Assembly (NCBI GenBank): GCA_023252035.1
Contig: JAHEXQ010000001.1
Coordinates: 1 to 48,596 of the forward strand
Source of the DNA: Actinomycetes bacterium
GTDB lineage: Bacteria; Actinomycetota; Geothermincolia; Geothermincolales; JAHEXQ01
Direction of reading: 5' to 3'
Length of the DNA: 48,596 nucleotides
Part shown: piece after piece, positions 3,752-27,514 of the stretch
Numbering within the stretch: position 1 is the first letter of the stretch
Layout: each line of letters starts with the position of its first letter
Notes under the pieces: generated by a model
Told to the model about the DNA's origin: nothing
The model's input: the letters and a program-made list of their open reading frames with translations, nothing else
Database searches by the model: none
Translations under genes and position numbers: made by a program

Positions 3752-4345
3752 CTACAGGTAAGGGATAAGCTTGCACAGGGCGCGCGCGCGGTGGCTGATG
3801 GCGTTCTTCTCCGCCTCGGATAGCTCGGCCATGGTACGTTCCATGCCCTCGGGGACGAAGACCGGATCGTAACCGAAACCGCCGGGGCCGCGGTTCTCCT
3901 CGATGATGGTCCCCTCGATGACGCCCTCCGCCGTGTGCTCGGTGCCGTCGGGGTTGACCAGCGCCGCCCAGCACACGAAGCGGGCCCGGCGCCGCTCGAG
4001 CGGCACGCCCTCCATCGCCGCGAGCAGCTTGCTGTTGTTGGCCTCGTACTCGCCATTCGGCCCGGCATACCGGGCCGAATGGATGCCCGGCTCTCCCCCC
4101 AGGCAATCCACCTGCAATCCGGAGTCGTCCGCCAGAGCCCGCATCCCCGTAAAGTCAGCTATGGCCCTGGCCTTTACGAGCGCGTTCTCCTTAAAGCTAG
4201 CACCCTCCTCCTCCACATCGGGCCATCCGGTGAAATCCTCGAAGGTGAAGAGGGGTACGTCTATGCCCGCGAGGATATCTCTTATCTCGCGGATCTTGTC
4301 GCGGTTCTGCGTGGCCAGGACCACCGGTTCTTCCGGGTTTGGCAT
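3752..4345 (-). CDS. rdgB: non-canonical purine NTP pyrophosphatase (RdgB/HAM1 family)
   Basis: Typical motifs are present: VLATQNRDKIREI, DDSGLQVDCLGGEPGIHSARY, FGYDPVF and ISHRARAL. It follows rph, as in many genomes. Confidence 0.92.
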   Translation of the reverse strand: MPNPEEPVVLATQNRDKIREIRDILAGIDVPLFTFEDFTGWPDVEEEGASFKENALVKARAIADFTGMRALADDSGLQVDCLGGEPGIHSARYAGPNGEYEANNSKLLAAMEGVPLERRRARFVCWAALVNPDGTEHTAEGVIEGTIIEENRGPGGFGYDPVFVPEGMERTMAELSEAEKNAISHRARALCKLIPYL

Positions 4346-18191: not shown

Positions 18192-19532
18192 CTATTGCTC
18201 CTCGTCCTTCCAAATCTCCTGGAAAGAGGTGTCTAGGTCCTCCTCGAAGAACTTGGCCTTCTCCCGCCTCTCGCGGAGGGGCGGCCTTCCTTGCCGCGCC
18301 TCTCTCCTCCTCGATAGTACCGCGTTGAGAGCGCGCAATACCACCGAATCGTATAACGTCCCGCGCTCCATGCTCATCTCGTTGATGATGGCCCCGGGGT
18401 CCGCACCGACTCCCGCTTCCTGCGCCAGGTGGTCGTAAGCGCAGACCACGTTGAGGATACGCGCAGCGGTGGGAATGGCCCGGGCCGGTCCCTCCTCCAC
18501 CTCCCGCTGTTCCGCGCTGAGAATGTTGGAAACTCCTTCCAGCCCGGGTATCCCACGCAGAAGTTGCGCGCCCTTGGCGCGATAATCGGGCGCGGCGGCG
18601 CCTTCCACCTTGCCGATGTCGTCCAGGGCCGCAGCGAAGCGCAAGTCGCGTATCTCGTCCTCGGAGACGCCCATCTCGCGCGCCACGTCCAGGGAGAGGC
18701 TCGTCACCCGGGCCGAGTGGCCGTCATCCCCCCAGGCCAGCTCCGTCACGCCGGACACCGCCTGCACGGTCTGCAGCAGCCGGTCGTCCAGCCGCTTGTC
18801 GGTGTTGGATTCCGCCATCACGAGGAAGAGCGGCAGCAGGAACAGGACGAAGTTGAGCCAGGGTATTCTCGGGAAGTAGAGCGCCATCAGGAATCCCGAG
18901 GCCGCGATAGCGGCATAGACCGGGAAGGTCTTCCTGCTCTGGTGCGGCAGCAGGCTCTTCCAGTTCCCCGAGCGCGCCGCCCCCGTCTCCAGAGCCGATG
19001 TGATCATCTCACCCAGATAATAGACCAGGGCCATGACCGTAAAGGCGATGGGGAATATGAGGGCTCTCTGGGTTATCACCGGGTTGTAATAAGGATACTG
19101 TGTGCTGTAGGTGGGAAGGTACAACCTCCACTCCAAGCGGTTGCCGCCCAGGTTGGCTATCAGATGGTAGAAGAGGCCGGCCAGGCCCACCAGGTAGGTG
19201 CGCTGGATGATGTGGTAAAAATCTCCCTTGCTGATACGCTGCATCTTGGTGACGAGCCGCCCGCCCATGCTCCCTATGAAGAATATCCAGAGCACCTCCG
19301 GCAGCGGCCGGATGGCCACGATGCAGAGCATGACGGCCATGCCCAGGCGCATAGGCCTGCCCCAGGGGAACTTGATGCGGAAGGCCTCAGCAAAGGCCAG
19401 GAGGGCCATGAGGCCTATGGTCCGCACGAGGTCCAGGTTCGTGAACTTGATGCGCGTGGCCGCGAAGATGAGCACGGCGGCGCAGATGATGCCCGAGAGG
19501 ACGCGCATGAGAGTGAGTCGTCTATCGTCCAT
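18192..19532 (-). CDS. multi-pass membrane protein with degenerate (probably non-catalytic) HD-GYP-like domain
   Basis: An N-terminal polytopic region is followed by HSARVTSLSLDVAREMG...AALDDIGKV, in which HD has become DD. No HHExxDGxGYP segment is present. The ATG at 19532 follows GGAGGAG and overlaps the upstream stop by 11 nt. Confidence 0.65.
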   Translation of the reverse strand: MDDRRLTLMRVLSGIICAAVLIFAATRIKFTNLDLVRTIGLMALLAFAEAFRIKFPWGRPMRLGMAVMLCIVAIRPLPEVLWIFFIGSMGGRLVTKMQRISKGDFYHIIQRTYLVGLAGLFYHLIANLGGNRLEWRLYLPTYSTQYPYYNPVITQRALIFPIAFTVMALVYYLGEMITSALETGAARSGNWKSLLPHQSRKTFPVYAAIAASGFLMALYFPRIPWLNFVLFLLPLFLVMAESNTDKRLDDRLLQTVQAVSGVTELAWGDDGHSARVTSLSLDVAREMGVSEDEIRDLRFAAALDDIGKVEGAAAPDYRAKGAQLLRGIPGLEGVSNILSAEQREVEEGPARAIPTAARILNVVCAYDHLAQEAGVGADPGAIINEMSMERGTLYDSVVLRALNAVLSRRREARQGRPPLRERREKAKFFEEDLDTSFQEIWKDEEQ

Positions 19533-21177
19533 GGCTCTCCTCCCCGGGTTCGCCCTCGAAATCGGGGCGCGGCGCCTTGGCGTTCTCCCCCGGCGGTTGC
19601 GGCTCTGCGGGTGGAGCCGGTGATACATCCTCCTTCGCCTGCGCCCGCGGCGGAGCTTCCTCTTCCTCGCTCAAGGCTTGGCGCTCAGCGCTCTCGCGCA
19701 TCTGCCGCCGTTCCCGGAGTTCCCGGCGCCTTCTCTCGGTGTTGCTCTCGCGCCGGGTGAGCCGCGTTTTCCGCAAACTCCCGGCCTTCTCCTTCAGGCG
19801 CGGCCCTATGATGGCGATCTCCTCCGGCTCGAGCCCCTCTGCCTCCACCTCGGCGCCAGCCTCGGGAGCAAACACGGCTTGCCGGCGTACCTCCTCCAGT
19901 GCGGCGAGAAAGGCCCCGGTCACGGCTTCATCGTAATGGACGCCCGCGCTCTGCCTTATCTCGGCCACGGCTACCTCGTGGCTCTTCGGACCCCTCCAGG
20001 GCCTCGGGCTGACCATAGCGTCATAGGCATCCGCCAGGGCTATGATACGAGCTCCAAGGGGAATGGTATCCGCGGCCAGGCCGTCGATGTAGCCGCCGCC
20101 GTCGTACTGCTCGTGGTGGTGCTGGATGGACTCGGCTTGTCCCTGCAGGAAATCGATGGCCTCCATGTGCTGTGCGCTCTCCAGCGGGTGCCGCTTCACC
20201 AGTTCGAATTCATCCTCGTCGAGCTGTCCCTTTTTGGTCAGAACCTGCAGCGGCACGGCGGCCTTGCCGATATCATGCAGCAACGCGGTGTAGTAGAGGC
20301 GGCTAACCTCGTAGGCATTCATCCGCAGATGTTTTCCCGTTATGGCGGCGAGGGAAGCTACGCGCTCGGCGTGCCCCTCCAGGTAGGGTTCGCGCTTCTC
20401 CACATACTTGACCAGGGCGCCCACGCCCTGGTCATAGGCCTTGCGAAGCACCAGGTTCCTGCCGCTGAAATACCAGGCCGCGGCGAGCAGGACCAGAAAG
20501 GCGCCCAGCCCGAAAGCTCCCCTGGCCGCCTCGCTCCACCTACCCAGCACCTCCCCGGTCTCCAGGTCCAGGTGAAAAGCGTTCTGGGCGAAGATGATGC
20601 CGGCCGTCAATCCCACCAGCGCATAGACCAGTTGGTTTACGACCATGAGGAGGTTGGCCCGGCGGTAGAAAGCCTGCAGGGGCCGGTTCTTCTCCCAACT
20701 GGTAACGATGGCCACCTGGACGGAGTTAACGACATAGAATACCAGCGTGGCCAGCAGGATCAGCGGGATGGCCTCGAAGCCCTGTCTCAGGGTGAAAAAC
20801 TGGTGGTGGCCGCCCAGTGCGTAGTAGACGAAGGAGGCGGCCGATACCGACAGCGCGTACTGGAGGCCGTTGAAGGCCATGCGCCACGGATCACGCCGGC
20901 TGCCTCCGCGCAGCGAAACGGCTCCGAAGAGGGCGACGAGCGCCGCCGTTATCCCGTTCAAAGCGACGATGGCCCCGATGAGCGGGATGAGCGTGTAGGT
21001 GGTCTTGGTGCCGCCTTCACCCCGGTCTCCCAGGGTTTCGGCCAGTACGGTGATGATGCCGAAAAGCACCAGGGAGAACCATAAGACATGCTGATGGCCA
21101 GCAGTAGCCCGGTAGGCTATCACGCCAACCACGGCCGCCGCCTGGGCGGCCATCAGTGCTTTCAGTTTCCCTTGCAT
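19522..21177 (-). CDS. membrane-anchored HD-GYP domain protein (putative c-di-GMP phosphodiesterase)
   Basis: HAERVASL...ALLHDIGK...RHP...HHHEQYDGGGYIDGL...ALADAYDAM are present after ~7 predicted TM helices, followed by an E/R/A-rich tail. The ATG at 21177 (MQGKLK) lies 5 nt after GGAGG. Confidence 0.8.
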   Translation of the reverse strand: MQGKLKALMAAQAAAVVGVIAYRATAGHQHVLWFSLVLFGIITVLAETLGDRGEGGTKTTYTLIPLIGAIVALNGITAALVALFGAVSLRGGSRRDPWRMAFNGLQYALSVSAASFVYYALGGHHQFFTLRQGFEAIPLILLATLVFYVVNSVQVAIVTSWEKNRPLQAFYRRANLLMVVNQLVYALVGLTAGIIFAQNAFHLDLETGEVLGRWSEAARGAFGLGAFLVLLAAAWYFSGRNLVLRKAYDQGVGALVKYVEKREPYLEGHAERVASLAAITGKHLRMNAYEVSRLYYTALLHDIGKAAVPLQVLTKKGQLDEDEFELVKRHPLESAQHMEAIDFLQGQAESIQHHHEQYDGGGYIDGLAADTIPLGARIIALADAYDAMVSPRPWRGPKSHEVAVAEIRQSAGVHYDEAVTGAFLAALEEVRRQAVFAPEAGAEVEAEGLEPEEIAIIGPRLKEKAGSLRKTRLTRRESNTERRRRELRERRQMRESAERQALSEEEEAPPRAQAKEDVSPAPPAEPQPPGENAKAPRPDFEGEPGEESHGR

Positions 21178-21360
21178 AAGAACCTCCAGGGGGACTGGAT
21201 CACCAGCGAAAGGTCGCACCCTTTCGCACGAGCTGGTCGAGCAGTCTGCTTATCATCTCAACAAACCGTTTCATGTTCCTCCGTACTACGTACCTGTCCC
21301 CGTACACGGGAAAAGCGTACATCTGTACCCGACACCGGGCTTGTTCGCCTTCAGCCTCCC

Positions 21361-22864: not shown

Positions 22865-23020
22865 CGCTCTTCGTTCCCCACGTTTTTGTCAGCTTTGCGC
22901 TCAATTAATTTATCGTCAGCGGGTAAGGCGACCTGAAGTCCGATTTGATGCCCTGACCAGGTTGACAAAAAGGCCAGACCCTGTTGTTAACCTGGCTCTT
23001 CACCCGGTAGTGGGTCAGTT

Positions 23021-23893
23021 TCAATCCAAAAGCGCCGCGATTTCTTCTAGCGTCCAGACGTGATCTGCTACGCCCGCTTCCATTGCCGGTGTGCGCGGAT
23101 ACGGATTCGCAAGGCTCTTGTGGGGCCGTGCGAAGTTGTAGTGCATGAAGTGAAGGCTGACCGCGCAGGCAAGATTCTCGGCCTTCTTCGAGAACGCATT
23201 GGTTAGACGAGTAAACCGCCGCATACCCATGCGCATTGTTAGATCCTGCCGCTCGACATAGGAAGTCGATATGTGATCGGGGTCCGGCTTGCCCGTGATG
23301 ATCTTTGTCTTAGTGCCCACATAATCGGCTGGAGAATAACGCTTCTGTCCCTCCGGCTCATTCCCATAAAGCTTGTGGAGCATCGCATAATCTATGTTTG
23401 CACCGAAAGCCCTCTCGACAGAGTTCAGATAAGCCCTGTGGCCGTCTGTCGTAAGCTGGACGGGGTTGCGGAGCCGCGAGGCTACCTCGGACACAAAGAG
23501 AGTTGCATCTTCACCATCGCGCTTGCCCACAAGCCAAGAGGGAACCAGCTTAGTGCCAGCATCAAGCGCAACCCAGGTCCAAATATCCCCGTAGCCGAAC
23601 TCGCCAGCGTGTTCTTCGGGAACGTTCTTCGCCTTGGAATAGACGAAGCTCCATATCTCGTCGAATTGAAGACGCTTACAAGGCAGCTCGCGCAGGACTT
23701 TGTCCTGGTATTCGGAGCAGGCCCGGCCAAGATCAACGAGCAGTTTGGTTGCGGTGTTCTTAGCCGCTCCTGTAATGCGCACTGTCGCCCGGATGCTCAT
23801 TCCCTCAGCAAGACACCCGATGATCTGTGCGCGCTTCTCAGTCGACAGCCGGTTCATACTGACCATTATACTTGAGCGGTCTAGCTTCGCCAA
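23021..23893 (-). CDS. IS1-family DDE transposase
   Basis: An N-terminal HTH is present (MNRLSTEKRAQIIGCLAEGMSIRATVRITG). The DDE context reads LQFDEIWSFV, LTTDGHRAY and STSYVERQDLTMRMGMRRFTRLTNAFSKK...HYNFARPH. The stop codon lies inside the left IR. Confidence 0.88.
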   Translation of the reverse strand: MAKLDRSSIMVSMNRLSTEKRAQIIGCLAEGMSIRATVRITGAAKNTATKLLVDLGRACSEYQDKVLRELPCKRLQFDEIWSFVYSKAKNVPEEHAGEFGYGDIWTWVALDAGTKLVPSWLVGKRDGEDATLFVSEVASRLRNPVQLTTDGHRAYLNSVERAFGANIDYAMLHKLYGNEPEGQKRYSPADYVGTKTKIITGKPDPDHISTSYVERQDLTMRMGMRRFTRLTNAFSKKAENLACAVSLHFMHYNFARPHKSLANPYPRTPAMEAGVADHVWTLEEIAALLD

Positions 23894-23991
23894 GCATTTT
23901 CGTCAGATTCATGCGAAACGATCTTTTCTTGGATGGAAGCGTTCTTAGGGCGGCCGAAGTTGGCCGCCCTAAGAAGTGATATGCATTACGG

Positions 23992-24207
23992 TTAGAGTTT
24001 GCGCAATTGTACCGTATGCCGCTGGCCCTTACTGTCCATAACCCGTGCCTTGTGTCTTTCAATGGGTGACGGAATACGAGAACTTGCGCTTCCCAATCCC
24101 ATTTCGCTTAGTTTATCGTAAAGTTCCAGCTCTTCCTTCAATTTATCGGGGTCGATGCGTGGATTGGTTTTAATTATCTGCGCCAAATCGATGGGCTTAA
24201 CCATCAC
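23992..24207 (-). CDS. hypothetical 71-aa protein (IS passenger gene 3)
   Basis: The ORF starts 15 nt after the protease stop, with AAGGGGG upstream. It is followed by the 12-bp-stem hairpin 23944-23973. No family is recognised. Confidence 0.5.
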   Translation of the reverse strand: MMVKPIDLAQIIKTNPRIDPDKLKEELELYDKLSEMGLGSASSRIPSPIERHKARVMDSKGQRHTVQLRKL

Positions 24208-24222
24208 GGCCCCCTTTCTTCA

Positions 24223-25116
24223 TCAGAGAAATGGATTGAAATCGCATTTCGTATGCACAACTCCTAGAGCCCCTATTTTACCCACGTAATCGTCTAGCAA
24301 ATCATGGTATCTGCGAACTTTATTATCCAAATCTATATCGGCACCGAAGTCTTCGATCCTCAGCTTGAGGTCTCGCTCCAGGACATCTCTTGAGATCCCA
24401 TGACCATGCGAATGCCATCTGGCCGCGTCACTCAGCTCTGTTCCCACCATAATGGCTATATCTTTTCGCATCTTGTGGGTTACTTTTAGGTTTCGTTTCT
24501 CTGTTGTTTTCCAATGCTTGAGTTTGTACACTACCAACCATTCTTCAACCATTGCAACAGATAGTTGTCTTGCCTGCTCGTATTGGTATAATTCTGCTTG
24601 ATCGAAACACCGCAATAATATCTGCAGTTCCGCCCCCGTTAATGTTTGCTGCTGCGCCTTTTCTAGAAGACTCTCATATCTTTCAAGATAGCCAAGTGCT
24701 GGGAGCAATTTACCATCCGGCCCCGCCAACTGCGGGTCAATTGGACCAAGCCTAGAATAATAATCCATAAATATGGCATCACCCGACATAACCAATACGG
24801 TTCCGGCAGAGAATGCATAATCGGGAACAACAAAATCAACGCGCTTATAATGTTTCCGAAGGACATCAACTATGCGGCGAACCACTTCGACATCGCCGCC
24901 TAGCGTTGTTAGCACAAAAACAAGATTCTTCGCAGCATCTGGCTCAGCATAACGTGTCTAAATAGCGGTGCGGACCAGGCTGTCAACGCCGGAAATTAGA
25001 GGCCCGCTTAACCCTAACGCATGTCCCTTGAAATGTCGCTCCAGTGCTTTGATTCGAGTGTTCAGTTCTTGTTCGAGAAAATCATTTGCACTACGCGGAG
25101 TCGGGGCGACCATCAT
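24223..25116 (-). pseudogene. SDH-family / ClpP-fold serine proteinase interrupted by one in-frame TAG (IS passenger gene 2)
   Basis: Track ORFs 24958..25146 and 24223..24915 share one frame, separated only by TAG at 24960-24958. The joined sequence carries LVFVLTTLGGDVEVV and the nucleophile context VPDYAFSAGTVLVMSGD...LGPIDPQ. The start ATG at 25116 overlaps the upstream stop (ATGA). Confidence 0.7.
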
Positions 25117-25379
25117 TTCTCTCCATGATCTGATCGAGATTGCCAACGTGCCCTTGCGGCTTTCCTAGCAATCTCGCTGCGTTGCTCATAAGTAAGCTTC
25201 TCCGCTCTTGCGCGGCCACCTTTCAGCCCACCTCTTCGGCCTAGTTCGACCGCAGCGGGATTCTTCTCGCGCTCCGGCTTGGGCGCAGGCTTTTCTTCAC
25301 CCGTCGCCTCAGATACAATCGCAGCGGCAAGTCTATTCAGATCTCTTGGCTTTTTCCCCTTGCTTGACCGTTCAGGCAT
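25113..25379 (-). CDS. 88-aa basic protein with KGG / ARKAAxARW C-terminal motif (IS passenger gene 1)
   Basis: It is Lys/Arg-rich, ending ELGRRGGLKGGRARAEKLTYEQRSEIARKAARARW. From memory this motif recurs in small phage/plasmid-borne proteins. It is the first gene inside the right IR. Confidence 0.55.
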   Translation of the reverse strand: MPERSSKGKKPRDLNRLAAAIVSEATGEEKPAPKPEREKNPAAVELGRRGGLKGGRARAEKLTYEQRSEIARKAARARWQSRSDHGEK

Positions 25380-25436
25380 ACTTTAACGATATCACGTTTT
25401 GTCAAATTCTGCGGTTTCAAACTGACCCACTACCCT

Positions 25437-26234
25437 TCACCCGGTCCCCGGTGCCAAGCCACCGGGGACGTCCCGGGCCAGCACGCAGCAGGTGACCCGT
25501 CCGGCGCCTGCCCGCTTCAGCGAGCGGGCGCATTCCGAGAGGGTGAAGCCCGAGGTCATCACGTCATCCACCAGCAGCACGTGCGTACGGCCCGACAGGC
25601 CCTCCTCTCTTGCCTCGAAAGCGCCGCGGACGTTTTCCCGTCTCGCCCTGAGAGCCAGGCCCGTCTGGGCCGCTCCGGACCTCGTCCTCCGCAGCAGCGG
25701 GGCCGCCTCCAGGCCCAGGCCCCGCGCCACTTCCTTCGCCAGGAGCTCCGCCTGGTTGTAGCCCCTCTCCTTCTGCTTGCGACGGTGCATGGGTACGAAG
25801 GTCACCACATCGAAAGCACCCTCGGCGGCCGTCTGCGCTCTCCATGCATACATGTCGCCCCCGGCCGCGCAAGCGGCTTGCGTGGCACCGCTAGCCGGCG
25901 CTCCCTGCCGCAGCGCTTCGCCCATCAGATCGGCCAGGTAAGGCACGAGACGGCGCCCGTTACGGTACTTGAGCCGGTGGATTATGGCGCGCAGGGGATC
26001 GCGGTAGAGGCCGGCGGCGTAAGCCCCATCGAAAGCGGGCCTGCGCAAAAGGCATTCCGCGCAGACGTCCACCTCGTAAAAAGTCGGGCGGGCACAGCGC
26101 CTGCAGCGCGGCCCTTGGAGCAATGCAAGCCTATCCCGGCAGTCGCCGCAGACCAGCTCGCCGCCGTACTCGCCGCACCCCGCGCAGGAAGTGGGGAAGA
26201 CAAGTTCCAGAAGGTATTCGCCCAACCAGCCCAT
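25437..26234 (-). CDS. comFC: ComF-family phosphoribosyltransferase (ComFC-like)
   Basis: The N-terminal zinc ribbon is CAGCGEYGGELVCGDCRDRL...CRRCARP...CAEC. The PRTase motif is VLLVDDVMTSGFT. Its stop codon lies in the IS target duplication. Confidence 0.9.
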   Translation of the reverse strand: MGWLGEYLLELVFPTSCAGCGEYGGELVCGDCRDRLALLQGPRCRRCARPTFYEVDVCAECLLRRPAFDGAYAAGLYRDPLRAIIHRLKYRNGRRLVPYLADLMGEALRQGAPASGATQAACAAGGDMYAWRAQTAAEGAFDVVTFVPMHRRKQKERGYNQAELLAKEVARGLGLEAAPLLRRTRSGAAQTGLALRARRENVRGAFEAREEGLSGRTHVLLVDDVMTSGFTLSECARSLKRAGAGRVTCCVLARDVPGGLAPGTG

Positions 26235-26368: not shown

Positions 26369-27514
26369 TCAAGGTGCCTCCGGCGGCTCCTCGGACTCCT
26401 TCTTGACCCTCTCGTTCTTCCCGATGATCGAGCCTGGCATTACGCGCACGCTGGGGTGGATGACACTCCCCTCGCCGATAACGGTGCGGTTTCCGATGAT
26501 TGTATCCCGCATCACGGCCGCCTTCTCGCCGATCTCCGCTTCGTAACACACGATGGAGTCCACGATATTTGCGTCCTTACCTATGTAGCCCTCTCCCCAC
26601 TTGATGCCGCGGCAGAGCAGGGCTCCCTCGTCTATGACCGTCCGGTCGCCCACGATGAGTGGCCCGTAGAGCTTGGCTCCGGTCATGACGTGGCACTCAG
26701 CCCCGATGCAGATGGGCCCCACTATGAGCACGTCCTCCTCGATGACCGTGCCGTCGCCGATCCAGACATCGTCTCCGATGCGCACGCCCGGGATATTCAC
26801 GCGCACGTGCCCCTCCAGGGCGTCGAAGTTCCCCCTCCGGTACTCCTCGATGCTGCCCACGTCGTTCCAGTAGTCGTTATGGACGTAGGCGTAGAATGCT
26901 ATATCGTTCTCGAGGAGGTCGGGGAAGAGCTGGCTGCCGAAGTCGTAATAGAAGCGCTTGGGGATGAGGTCGAAGATGTCGGGCTCCATCATGTAGATAC
27001 CGCTGTTGGCCACGCGGCTCTGCTCCGTTCCCGGCTCCGGCTTCTCCTGGAAGGACCGGATGCGGGCTTCCTCGTCCGCAATGACCACTCCGTACTTGGA
27101 GGGGTCGTCCACGCGCGTGCAGACGATGCTCGCTATACCTCTCTTGGCCCGGTGGTATTCCGCGAGGCCGCCCAGATCGATATCCGTCAGGGCGTCGCCG
27201 CTGATGATGAGGAAGGTCTCCCCCCGCAACTCCTTTTCGAGTTTCTTCACACCGCCGGCCGTTCCCAGCAGCTCTTCCTCGTAGGAATACTCGATATGGG
27301 CTCCCCAGGCTTTGCCGTCCCCGAAATGGTTGCGGATGGCGTGCGGGTAGTAATGCAGGTTCACGTAGATGTCCCTGATGCCGTGCCTCACCAGCAGTTC
27401 GACGATGTGTTCCATGACGGGCTTGTTCACGATGGGCACCATGGGCTTGGCGATGTCCTCGGTGAGCGGCTTCAGGCGGGTTCCCAGGCCCGCAGCGAGT
27501 ATCATGGCTTTCAT
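26369..27514 (-). CDS. sugar-phosphate nucleotidyltransferase with C-terminal left-handed beta-helix (mannose-1-P guanylyltransferase-like)
   Basis: MKAMILAAGLGTRLKPLTEDIAKPMVP is the NTP-transferase G-loop, and hexapeptide repeats sit in the C-terminal third. The ATG at 27514 follows GGAGG. Confidence 0.85.
   Translation of the reverse strand: MKAMILAAGLGTRLKPLTEDIAKPMVPIVNKPVMEHIVELLVRHGIRDIYVNLHYYPHAIRNHFGDGKAWGAHIEYSYEEELLGTAGGVKKLEKELRGETFLIISGDALTDIDLGGLAEYHRAKRGIASIVCTRVDDPSKYGVVIADEEARIRSFQEKPEPGTEQSRVANSGIYMMEPDIFDLIPKRFYYDFGSQLFPDLLENDIAFYAYVHNDYWNDVGSIEEYRRGNFDALEGHVRVNIPGVRIGDDVWIGDGTVIEEDVLIVGPICIGAECHVMTGAKLYGPLIVGDRTVIDEGALLCRGIKWGEGYIGKDANIVDSIVCYEAEIGEKAAVMRDTIIGNRTVIGEGSVIHPSVRVMPGSIIGKNERVKKESEEPPEAP

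Follow-up and report, generated by a model that had tools for sequence, protein, structure and literature searches.

The 48,596-bp stretch of DNA analysed here (contig JAHEXQ010000001.1 of an Actinomycetes bacterium; hereafter 'the window') contains a 2,429-bp mobile element of the IS1 type, at positions 23006–25434, inserted on the stop codon of the gene comFC. We consider it likely that this element is an IS1-family transporter insertion sequence (IS) that consists of one arm carrying a small basic gene, p88, a second arm carrying the transposase gene and, between them, a slot of variable content, with a protease and a 71-aa protein (p71), a candidate addiction- or defence-type pair, as the cargo of this copy. 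A preliminary description of the window had recognized an IS1-type element on the comFC stop codon, and this proposal is supported by GGnnnTG ends, an 8-bp target duplication, IS1 as the best family match of the transposase and an allele with an empty site. The tight packing that it described, with all four genes on the minus strand, the protease start overlapping the p88 gene by ATGA and the p71 gene beginning 15 nt after the protease, was also recovered. The parts of the element and its borders are as follows.

22998–23005, unstranded: left copy of the target duplication, CTTCACCC, present as a single copy in the empty-site contig L147 (1014–1021)
23006–23027, unstranded: terminal inverted repeat at the transposase end, GGTAGTGGGTCAGTTTCAATCC, the 16-nt core of which also bounds related elements
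23021–23857, minus strand: DDE transposase of IS1 type in a single open reading frame (ORF), 278 aa from a conserved ATG (MNRLSTEKR...)
23865–23893, minus strand: promoter-like TTGGCG-N17-TATAAT, 10 of 12 matches, ending 7 nt before the transposase ATG at 23857
23942–23955 and 23962–23975, minus strand: perfect 14-bp stem-loop with no U tract, ΔG −28.4 kcal/mol, z = −6.3
23992–24207, minus strand: p71, 71 aa, basic (pI 9.7), cargo, the downstream partner of this clade of SDH-type proteases
24223–25116, minus strand: SDH-type ClpP-fold serine protease (PF01972), 297 codons, cargo, a nonsense pseudogene
25113–25379, minus strand: p88, 88 aa, very basic (pI 10.6), a backbone gene next to the inverted repeat in relatives
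25413–25434, unstranded: terminal inverted repeat at the p88 end, from self-comparison of the arms and the count of a 19-mer
25435–25442, unstranded: right copy of the target duplication, holding the comFC stop codon (25437–25439)

Both ends of the element read GGTAGTG..., and the terminal inverted repeats, which begin GGTAGTGGGTCAGTTT, are 22 nt long with arms that are 91% complementary. The 19-mer GGTAGTGGGTCAGTTTSAA has only two sites in the window, which are the two ends of the element; the expected count was 0.03, and two matches were found in none of 100 shuffles of the window. The inverted repeats of the preliminary description are real and form a unique pair in the window, although they extend beyond the 19 bp given there. 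The 8-bp direct repeat is exact, and the comFC TGA, on the minus strand, falls inside its right-hand copy, both as first reported. The element is also more A+T-rich than its flanks, as had been noticed, with a G+C content of 50.8% against 60.7% in the rest of the window and approximately 46.5% in the protease and p71 genes.

An allele lacking the element proved the insertion. The cluster of comFC sequences at 90% identity holds two further members, from other read sets, and through members of this cluster we located L147 (Logan SRR23674758), a conspecific contig of 1,447 bp in which comFC is followed after 135 nt by a flgM-like gene. Positions 1–1021 of L147 align to window positions 26455–25435 at 99.4% and positions 1011–1447 to window positions 23008–22572 at 99.8%; the 8-bp target is present once, and the whole 2,429 bp are missing. 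The insertion thus brought in the 2,429 bp of the element together with a second copy of the target, and nothing else. The preliminary description had suggested looking for such an empty site and had raised the possibility that p88, the protease and p71 are fixed next to comFC; the empty-site allele has none of the three genes. We also considered that the inverted repeats might match by chance or come from two different elements; this is ruled out by the empty site together with the recurrence of the same ends around homologous units.

The occupied allele was found in two other assemblies, L148 and L149. L148 (ENA ERZ27279942 k141_1270006) is an independent assembly, 100% identical to the window, that ends at window position 23897, just upstream of the transposase gene, where repeats of that part within the community would be expected to break the assembly. 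A transposase at least 90% identical (P0246) is encoded on another contig, of 1,124 bp. These observations suggest that several copies of the transposase arm are present in the same community, perhaps with different cargo. The insertion is recent, and transposition has been active in this population. A genome scan for a close relative of comFC gave a best match that was only 37% identical, and the host species is absent from the representative genome set.

The best family match of the transposase is IS1 (NCBIfam NF033558, E = 9.5e-14), at 51.8 bits under a cut-off of 100. IS6 and IS1595 scored far more weakly. In Pfam, DDE_Tnp_IS1 scored 21.6 against a cut-off of 24.1, and DDE_Tnp_IS240 and HTH_23 were also below threshold. 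IS1, the match proposed earlier, is thus the best-scoring family, at scores below the curated cut-offs. More than 8,000 homologues of the transposase were found, and NCBI or JGI name many of them 'IS1 family transposase'; some of these lie on plasmids of cultured bacteria; exact sequence look-ups of its 290-aa and 281-aa forms gave no match. A single uninterrupted ORF of 278–290 aa holds both the helix–turn–helix (HTH) and the DDE domain, with no insA/insB' frameshift, and the open frame reaches a TTG at 23893, which gives the 290-aa form.

Further copies of the element had been proposed as a check, and we found 21 distinct complete relatives, 1.9–4.3 kb long and flanked by exact target duplications, of 8 bp in 20 elements and 9 bp in one. 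Three of the complete relatives lie on plasmids of cultured Alphaproteobacteria, and the same inverted-repeat core was found in more than 30 related loci; the hosts seen include a Firmicute-like metagenome-assembled genome, plasmids of Alphaproteobacteria and metagenome contigs from Actinobacteria and Acidobacteria. In every element, 0.7–1.9 kb of differing genes, on either strand, separate p88 from the transposase, and a few elements have extra genes in the interval from the inverted repeat to p88 or beyond the transposase. The whole unit of p88, cargo and transposase moves together, and the cargo is exchangeable between the conserved arms. The genes recognized in the slot by Pfam domains are listed below.

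XRE HTH domain fused to Peptidase_M78 (ImmA/IrrE type): approximately nine elements
SDH-type proteases of several clades: approximately 13 loci, including relics
HipA-like kinases (HipA_2)
toxins Gp49/HigB, ParE and PemK/MazF
SocA/Panacea antitoxin domain
RelA_SpoT-domain protein
DUF3800, P63C and HARE-HTH proteins
BglII-type endonuclease with MT-A70 methylase, and an N6_N4 methylase

Restriction-modification and methylase genes can lie outside the interval between p88 and the transposase. In L089 (1986–3250), a complete BglII-type restriction endonuclease and MT-A70 methylase lie downstream of the transposase, inside the 8-bp-duplicated unit, and in L093 (51–1505), where an exact duplication is absent, a 484-aa N6/N4 DNA methylase lies between the inverted repeat and p88.

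L001, the closest transposase relative with context (80–81% identical, with an identical 16-nt repeat core), carries a HipA-like kinase in place of the protease, and the p88 homologue that precedes the kinase is 58% identical. In L165, which is complete at 2,476 bp and has an 8-bp duplication of its own, the order of the four genes is that of the window; its p88, protease and transposase are 54–59% identical to those of the window, and all four of its genes are intact. Because L165 has the same layout and is diverged, the configuration seen in the window is old and moves as a unit. Elsewhere, L163/L164 and L083 have the protease and a small downstream gene beside relics of an inverted repeat and p88, without a transposase. 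The degenerate inverted repeats and decayed p88 fragments are at 3868–4023 and 5326–5341 of L083 and at 1492–1738 of L163. Relics beside transposase-less chromosomal pairs indicate that at least some of the 'stand-alone' copies derive from the same type of IS; in the protease loci L084 and L162, no trace of an IS was seen.

p88 is a conserved core gene of this IS lineage and not cargo. A metagenome scan seeded with p88 yielded 62 loci, of which 42 had a full-length match and enough upstream sequence. The inverted repeat GGTAGTGGGTCAGTTT was found within 2.5 kb upstream of p88 in 28 of these 42, at 56–67 nt in 13 of them, a spacing like that in the window, and a same-strand IS1-type transposase was present in 11 of the 14 p88 loci that had more than 2.5 kb downstream. 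The C-terminal p88 motif alone was IS-associated in only 2 of 18 matches. In the reverse test, with the transposase as the query, p88 was inside the element in nine of ten loci, one only a fragment. The gene is also present in elements on complete plasmids (Mesorhizobium loti 582, Hoeflea sp. IMCC20628 and Acidiphilium multivorum JZ-6), and it stays beside the inverted repeat where the cargo is unrelated and, in many cases, encoded on the other strand. The preliminary description had counted p88 as the first gene of a three-gene passenger operon; this did not hold, as p88 belongs to the backbone of the lineage and the operon is not intact, its protease having a premature stop.

There are at least 5,869 homologues of p88, of approximately 80–90 aa, the closest being 86–87% identical. 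One homologue listed, and the copy on the Mesorhizobium plasmid, are labelled 'histone H1'. The predicted structure has three helices (AlphaFold predicted local distance difference test score, pLDDT, 72); it has no Foldseek match in PDB, and a profile search of PDB sequences returned nothing meaningful. No family was found for p88 in Pfam, NCBIfam or PADLOC, and in PHROGs there was only a weak match of the C-terminal motif to phrog_2384, of unknown function. This motif (AAVxLGRxGGLKGGxARAxxLTxEQRSEIAxKAAxARW, residues ~38–80) also occurs alone in non-IS proteins (L105, L109, L114 and L137–L139), and in phrog_2384 it is the N-terminus of the phage family that is matched. It may be a wider small domain that has no assigned family. 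With moderate confidence, we suggest that p88 binds nucleic acid and serves the element as an accessory or regulatory factor. A sigma-70 promoter followed by a leaderless p88 start was seen as a pattern in several relatives and is unconvincing in the copy in the window.

The right arm is conserved also at the DNA level. We examined 27 sister elements and located the conserved transposase start in 20; most of these 20 have TTGACA-N17-(T/C)ATAAT ending 6–8 nt before the ATG. The block is at the equivalent position in L001, L086, L091, L095, L097, L122, L124, L125, L145, L165 and others. A conserved promoter block immediately before the ATG argues for a dedicated promoter and a leaderless transposase mRNA, and its position makes MNRLSTEKR, which gives 278 aa, the likely true start. 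On the basis of these motifs, we favour, with moderate confidence, leaderless expression of the transposase from its own promoter. The −10 box is separated from the ATG by 7 nt, GGTCAGT, that resemble the inverted-repeat core GGGTCAGT and overlap the start of transposase transcription; GGTCAGT may be an autoregulatory site. The hairpin that the preliminary description placed between the cargo and the transposase is present, with a stem of 14 bp rather than the 12 bp reported, and it folds better than all of 200 shuffles (0 of 200 as good). Its role may be to terminate transcription, to insulate or to stabilize RNA, and, with moderate confidence, we propose that it shields the transposase promoter from transcription of the cargo.

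The true cargo of this copy consists only of the protease and p71, a pair that recurs elsewhere. The assignment of the protease to the SDH-type Clp fold, as first made, was borne out by PF01972 (45.0 bits; cut-off 31.3), and the NCBIfam equivalog NF047768 matched at 56 bits, far under its cut-off of 250. Nearly all of its approximately 1,500 homologues are 291–321 aa long with 97–100% query cover, and the closest is only 60% identical. In 30 protease sequences S103, D127 and H237 are invariant, and many positions before codon 53 are also invariant or nearly so. The preliminary description only hinted at damage by mentioning a 'repaired operon'; the lesion is an in-frame TAG at 24958–24960, codon 53, where homologues have Glu, and it corresponds to one G-to-T change (GAG to TAG) by comparison with them. 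Because conserved residues precede the stop, the shortened product should be inactive. The same TAG is present in L148 and L149, making three assemblies, which rules out a one-off assembly error. Recoding of the TAG as pyrrolysine was considered as well; the Glu of the homologues and a single G-to-T change explain the codon. The IS-borne protease is also damaged in L104 (frameshift) and L134 (truncation).

A p71 homologue lies directly 3' of the protease in L083, L084, L094/L118 and L104, and genes of 73–75 aa were called at the p71 position in L163/L164 and L165; a tblastn search with p71 (E ≤ 1) missed the small genes of L163/L164 and L165, which are thus counterparts of p71 by position. The p71 family is small, with 24 clusters at 50% identity, 23 of which are of 61–75 aa. 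p71 had no match in Pfam, NCBIfam, PADLOC or PHROGs, and its AlphaFold model (pLDDT 68) gave only noise in Foldseek against PDB, with E above 1. The protease strongly matched the phage family phrog_11747, of unknown function, and weakly matched models of head-maturation proteases. In L097 (2354–2566) and L169 (1826–2008), small ORFs of 60–70 aa lie downstream of distant SDH proteases (~30% identical) that follow p88; the two share an '...I.PFV...' motif, and their sequence is unrelated to p71. Pairing of the protease with a small protein encoded downstream may be general in this family.

Ends of the form GGnnnTG and target duplications of 8–9 bp are marks of the IS1 family in the ISfinder tables. 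The element resembles IS1 in these ends, in its 8-bp duplication, in its DDE transposase that best matches IS1 and in an N-terminal HTH like that of InsA. It differs in being of the single-ORF type, whereas classical IS1 has insA and insB' with a programmed −1 frameshift, and in lacking evident paired cysteines, which form a zinc finger in InsA, in the translations of the transposase N-terminus and p88. p88, which we take to have no sequence resemblance to InsA, appears to resemble it by position but not to be homologous. The element is 2.4 kb long and its relatives are 1.9–4.3 kb long, compared with ~0.77 kb for IS1, because of the cargo. ISfinder lists an IS1 subgroup (ISMhu11) of up to ~4.6 kb that may carry passengers.

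Transporter IS (tIS) have IS-like ends and carry passenger genes unrelated to transposition (10.1101/2021.05.26.445724; PMC3129680; see also PMC7986276), and as of the 2021 TnCentral preprint they were restricted to the IS1595 and IS66 families (10.1101/2021.05.26.445724). The present lineage is like a tIS in having a single transposase, passengers inside the inverted repeats and one target duplication round the whole unit; it differs in being of IS1 type, in holding its cargo in a defined slot between two conserved modules, where it is exchanged among close relatives, and in having the accessory gene p88. A functional precedent is provided by toxin–antitoxin pairs inside Tn3-family transposons (PMC7157771). 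The likeness lies in addiction-type genes within the transposition unit, as sister elements carry HigB, ParE, MazF and HipA-like genes; the transposon family and the size differ, and the SDH protease and p71 belong to no recognized toxin–antitoxin family. Like other SDH Clp-fold proteinases (PF01972; NF047768), the protease scores above the Pfam threshold and has Ser, Asp and His in the family's order, whereas its clade has a dedicated ~70-aa partner and is often IS-borne, and the copy in the window is a nonsense pseudogene. A literature search found nothing on this lineage, p88 or ISMhu11, with some IS reviews outside the search, and no link of PF01972 proteases to defence, addiction or toxin–antitoxin systems.

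With respect to function, we tentatively regard the protease and p71 as an addiction- or defence-type two-gene module, an assignment to which we give close to an even chance. It is suggested by the genes that fill the slot in sister elements, by the strict two-gene make-up and patchy distribution of the pair, by the match to phrog_11747 and by repeated inactivation. Addiction, stress and anti-phage roles are all plausible, and the spectrum of sister cargo favours addiction and anti-phage roles. Several points weigh against this assignment or against the view of the element as an IS1-family tIS. No homology ties the protease and p71 to a known toxin–antitoxin or defence system: Pfam, NCBIfam and PADLOC searches with the protease, p71 and p88 hit neither toxin nor antitoxin families, and the PADLOC-DB v2 defence models gave no match to these proteins at E ≤ 0.01. 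Guilt by association with sister cargo is indirect, the transposase scores below the curated IS1 cut-offs of both NCBIfam (51.8 versus 100) and Pfam (21.6 versus 24.1), and the lineage may already be catalogued in ISfinder. The three assemblies that bear the TAG may come from related samples. Finally, p88 is often directly upstream of, and tightly packed with, co-oriented SDH proteases, including in L169, where an 86%-identical p88 precedes a distant SDH protease and then a gene of 60 aa, and neither an inverted repeat nor a transposase is detectable.

This last arrangement bears on two alternatives in which p88 is tied to the cargo. In our view, it is quite unlikely that p88 works with the protease and p71 in one operon and that all three genes are passenger cargo. 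The trio is tightly packed, through the ATGA overlap and the 15-nt gap, the same order is met again in L094/L118, L104, L134 and L165, with relics of it in L163/L164 and L083, and L169 offers a comparable set in which no IS end or transposase is detectable. However, p88 lies equally beside the inverted repeat where the slot holds XRE-M78, HipA-like, HigB/Gp49, HARE-HTH, DUF3800 or P63C genes, often on the opposite strand, and the closest relatives of p88 are 86–87% identical whereas the closest protease is 60% identical, which points to different histories. A specific functional tie between p88 and the protease, for example with p88 as a cleavable repressor, is an alternative to a general accessory role. 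In a broader form, p88 would be a promiscuous antitoxin or cleavable repressor for whatever effector fills the slot, and the SDH and M78 proteases would cleave it to switch on the element or the toxin, by analogy with ImmR/ImmA and DdrO/IrrE. The position of p88 immediately before co-oriented effectors to which it is probably translationally coupled (the protease in the window, L097, L157 and L165; a HipA-like kinase in L001 and L158) fits this idea, as do the dominance of proteases among the cargo (~13 SDH, ~9 XRE-M78) and the overlap of GGTCAGT, resembling the inverted-repeat core, with the start of transposase transcription. We nevertheless think it unlikely: an antitoxin or HTH partner is already part of many cargo sets (Gp49 beside an HTH protein; XRE fused to M78), many sets are in divergent orientation, cargo of the restriction-modification or methylase kind has no need of a partner like p88, and the searches found no homology of p88 to an antitoxin or repressor.

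A third alternative dispenses with a function for the cargo, making the protease and p71 a neutral hitch-hiker, or the remnant of a phage head-maturation protease, of no use to the element or the host. The disrupted proteases of the window, L104 and L134, the weak head-maturation matches and the strong match to phrog_11747 are all compatible with such a fate, but the pair has been kept together at 42–61% identity across many contexts with an invariant catalytic triad and N-terminal region, there are no phage structural genes nearby, and the diverged L165 retains all four genes intact. We consider this explanation very improbable.

The insertion also affects the surroundings of comFC, for which the relevant features are as follows.

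25437–26234, minus strand: comFC, ComF family, with a double zinc ribbon and a phosphoribosyltransferase domain from domain searches; coding sequence unharmed by the insertion
22973–22996, minus strand: terminator-like hairpin with a T-run, starting 2 nt beyond the target duplication and directly after the comFC stop in L147
22622–22864, minus strand: flgM-like gene, 80 aa (PF04316), 135 nt after comFC in L147

ComFC has the same length, 265 aa, in the empty-site allele. The hairpin at 22973–22996 is most likely the comFC terminator, now split from comFC by the element, which landed between the comFC stop and this hairpin in the orientation of comFC. Given this position and orientation, comFC transcription should run into p88 and the cargo, and read-through from comFC is an alternative to an own promoter for the expression of p88 in the window. 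The local outcome of the insertion is the separation of comFC from its likely terminator. The gene order described earlier was correct for comFC, the flgM-like gene and hpf, although two HD-domain genes lie between hpf and secA, and prfB was not confirmed. The HD_5 proteins, of 478 and 565 aa, are encoded side by side on the minus strand of the window (18192–21219).

In sum, the element transposed recently into the 8 bp that hold the comFC stop, just upstream of the terminator-like hairpin. Its left module comprises the inverted repeat and, ~56 nt on, p88; its right module runs from the sigma-70-like promoter through the single-ORF DDE transposase, the mRNA of which is probably leaderless, to the second inverted repeat. 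The slot between the modules, the content of which differs from element to element, here holds the protease and p71, closed by the strong hairpin. In the reading that we propose, the protease would be an effector and p71 its putative inhibitor, sensor or substrate, and the pair would promote maintenance of the element or shield the host. With its protease inactivated, this copy behaves as a plain, probably still mobile, IS. A more far-reaching version, which we regard as rather doubtful, is that the lineage is a dedicated vehicle for conflict systems, with a fixed p88 arm, a fixed leaderless-transposase arm and a slot exchangeable by recombination; the SDH protease and p71 would then be an unrecognized protease-based toxin–antitoxin or abortive-infection module, and p88 might be a protease-sensitive switch that couples stress to transposition or cargo expression.

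Taken singly, the insertion in the window is ordinary; what makes it of interest is the architecture shared across the lineage, together with the uncharacterized p88 and protease/p71 families. The lineage is widespread and seemingly undescribed. Small IS1-type elements are usually regarded as carrying only a transposase. If the lineage-wide pattern holds, such elements would systematically spread toxin–antitoxin, restriction-modification and protease modules across phyla. The p88 family, with at least 5,800 members that are mostly annotated as 'hypothetical', would gain a concrete context as an IS accessory factor, and the genes in the slot, including the SDH-protease/p71 pair and several families of unknown function, would become candidate addiction or defence genes.

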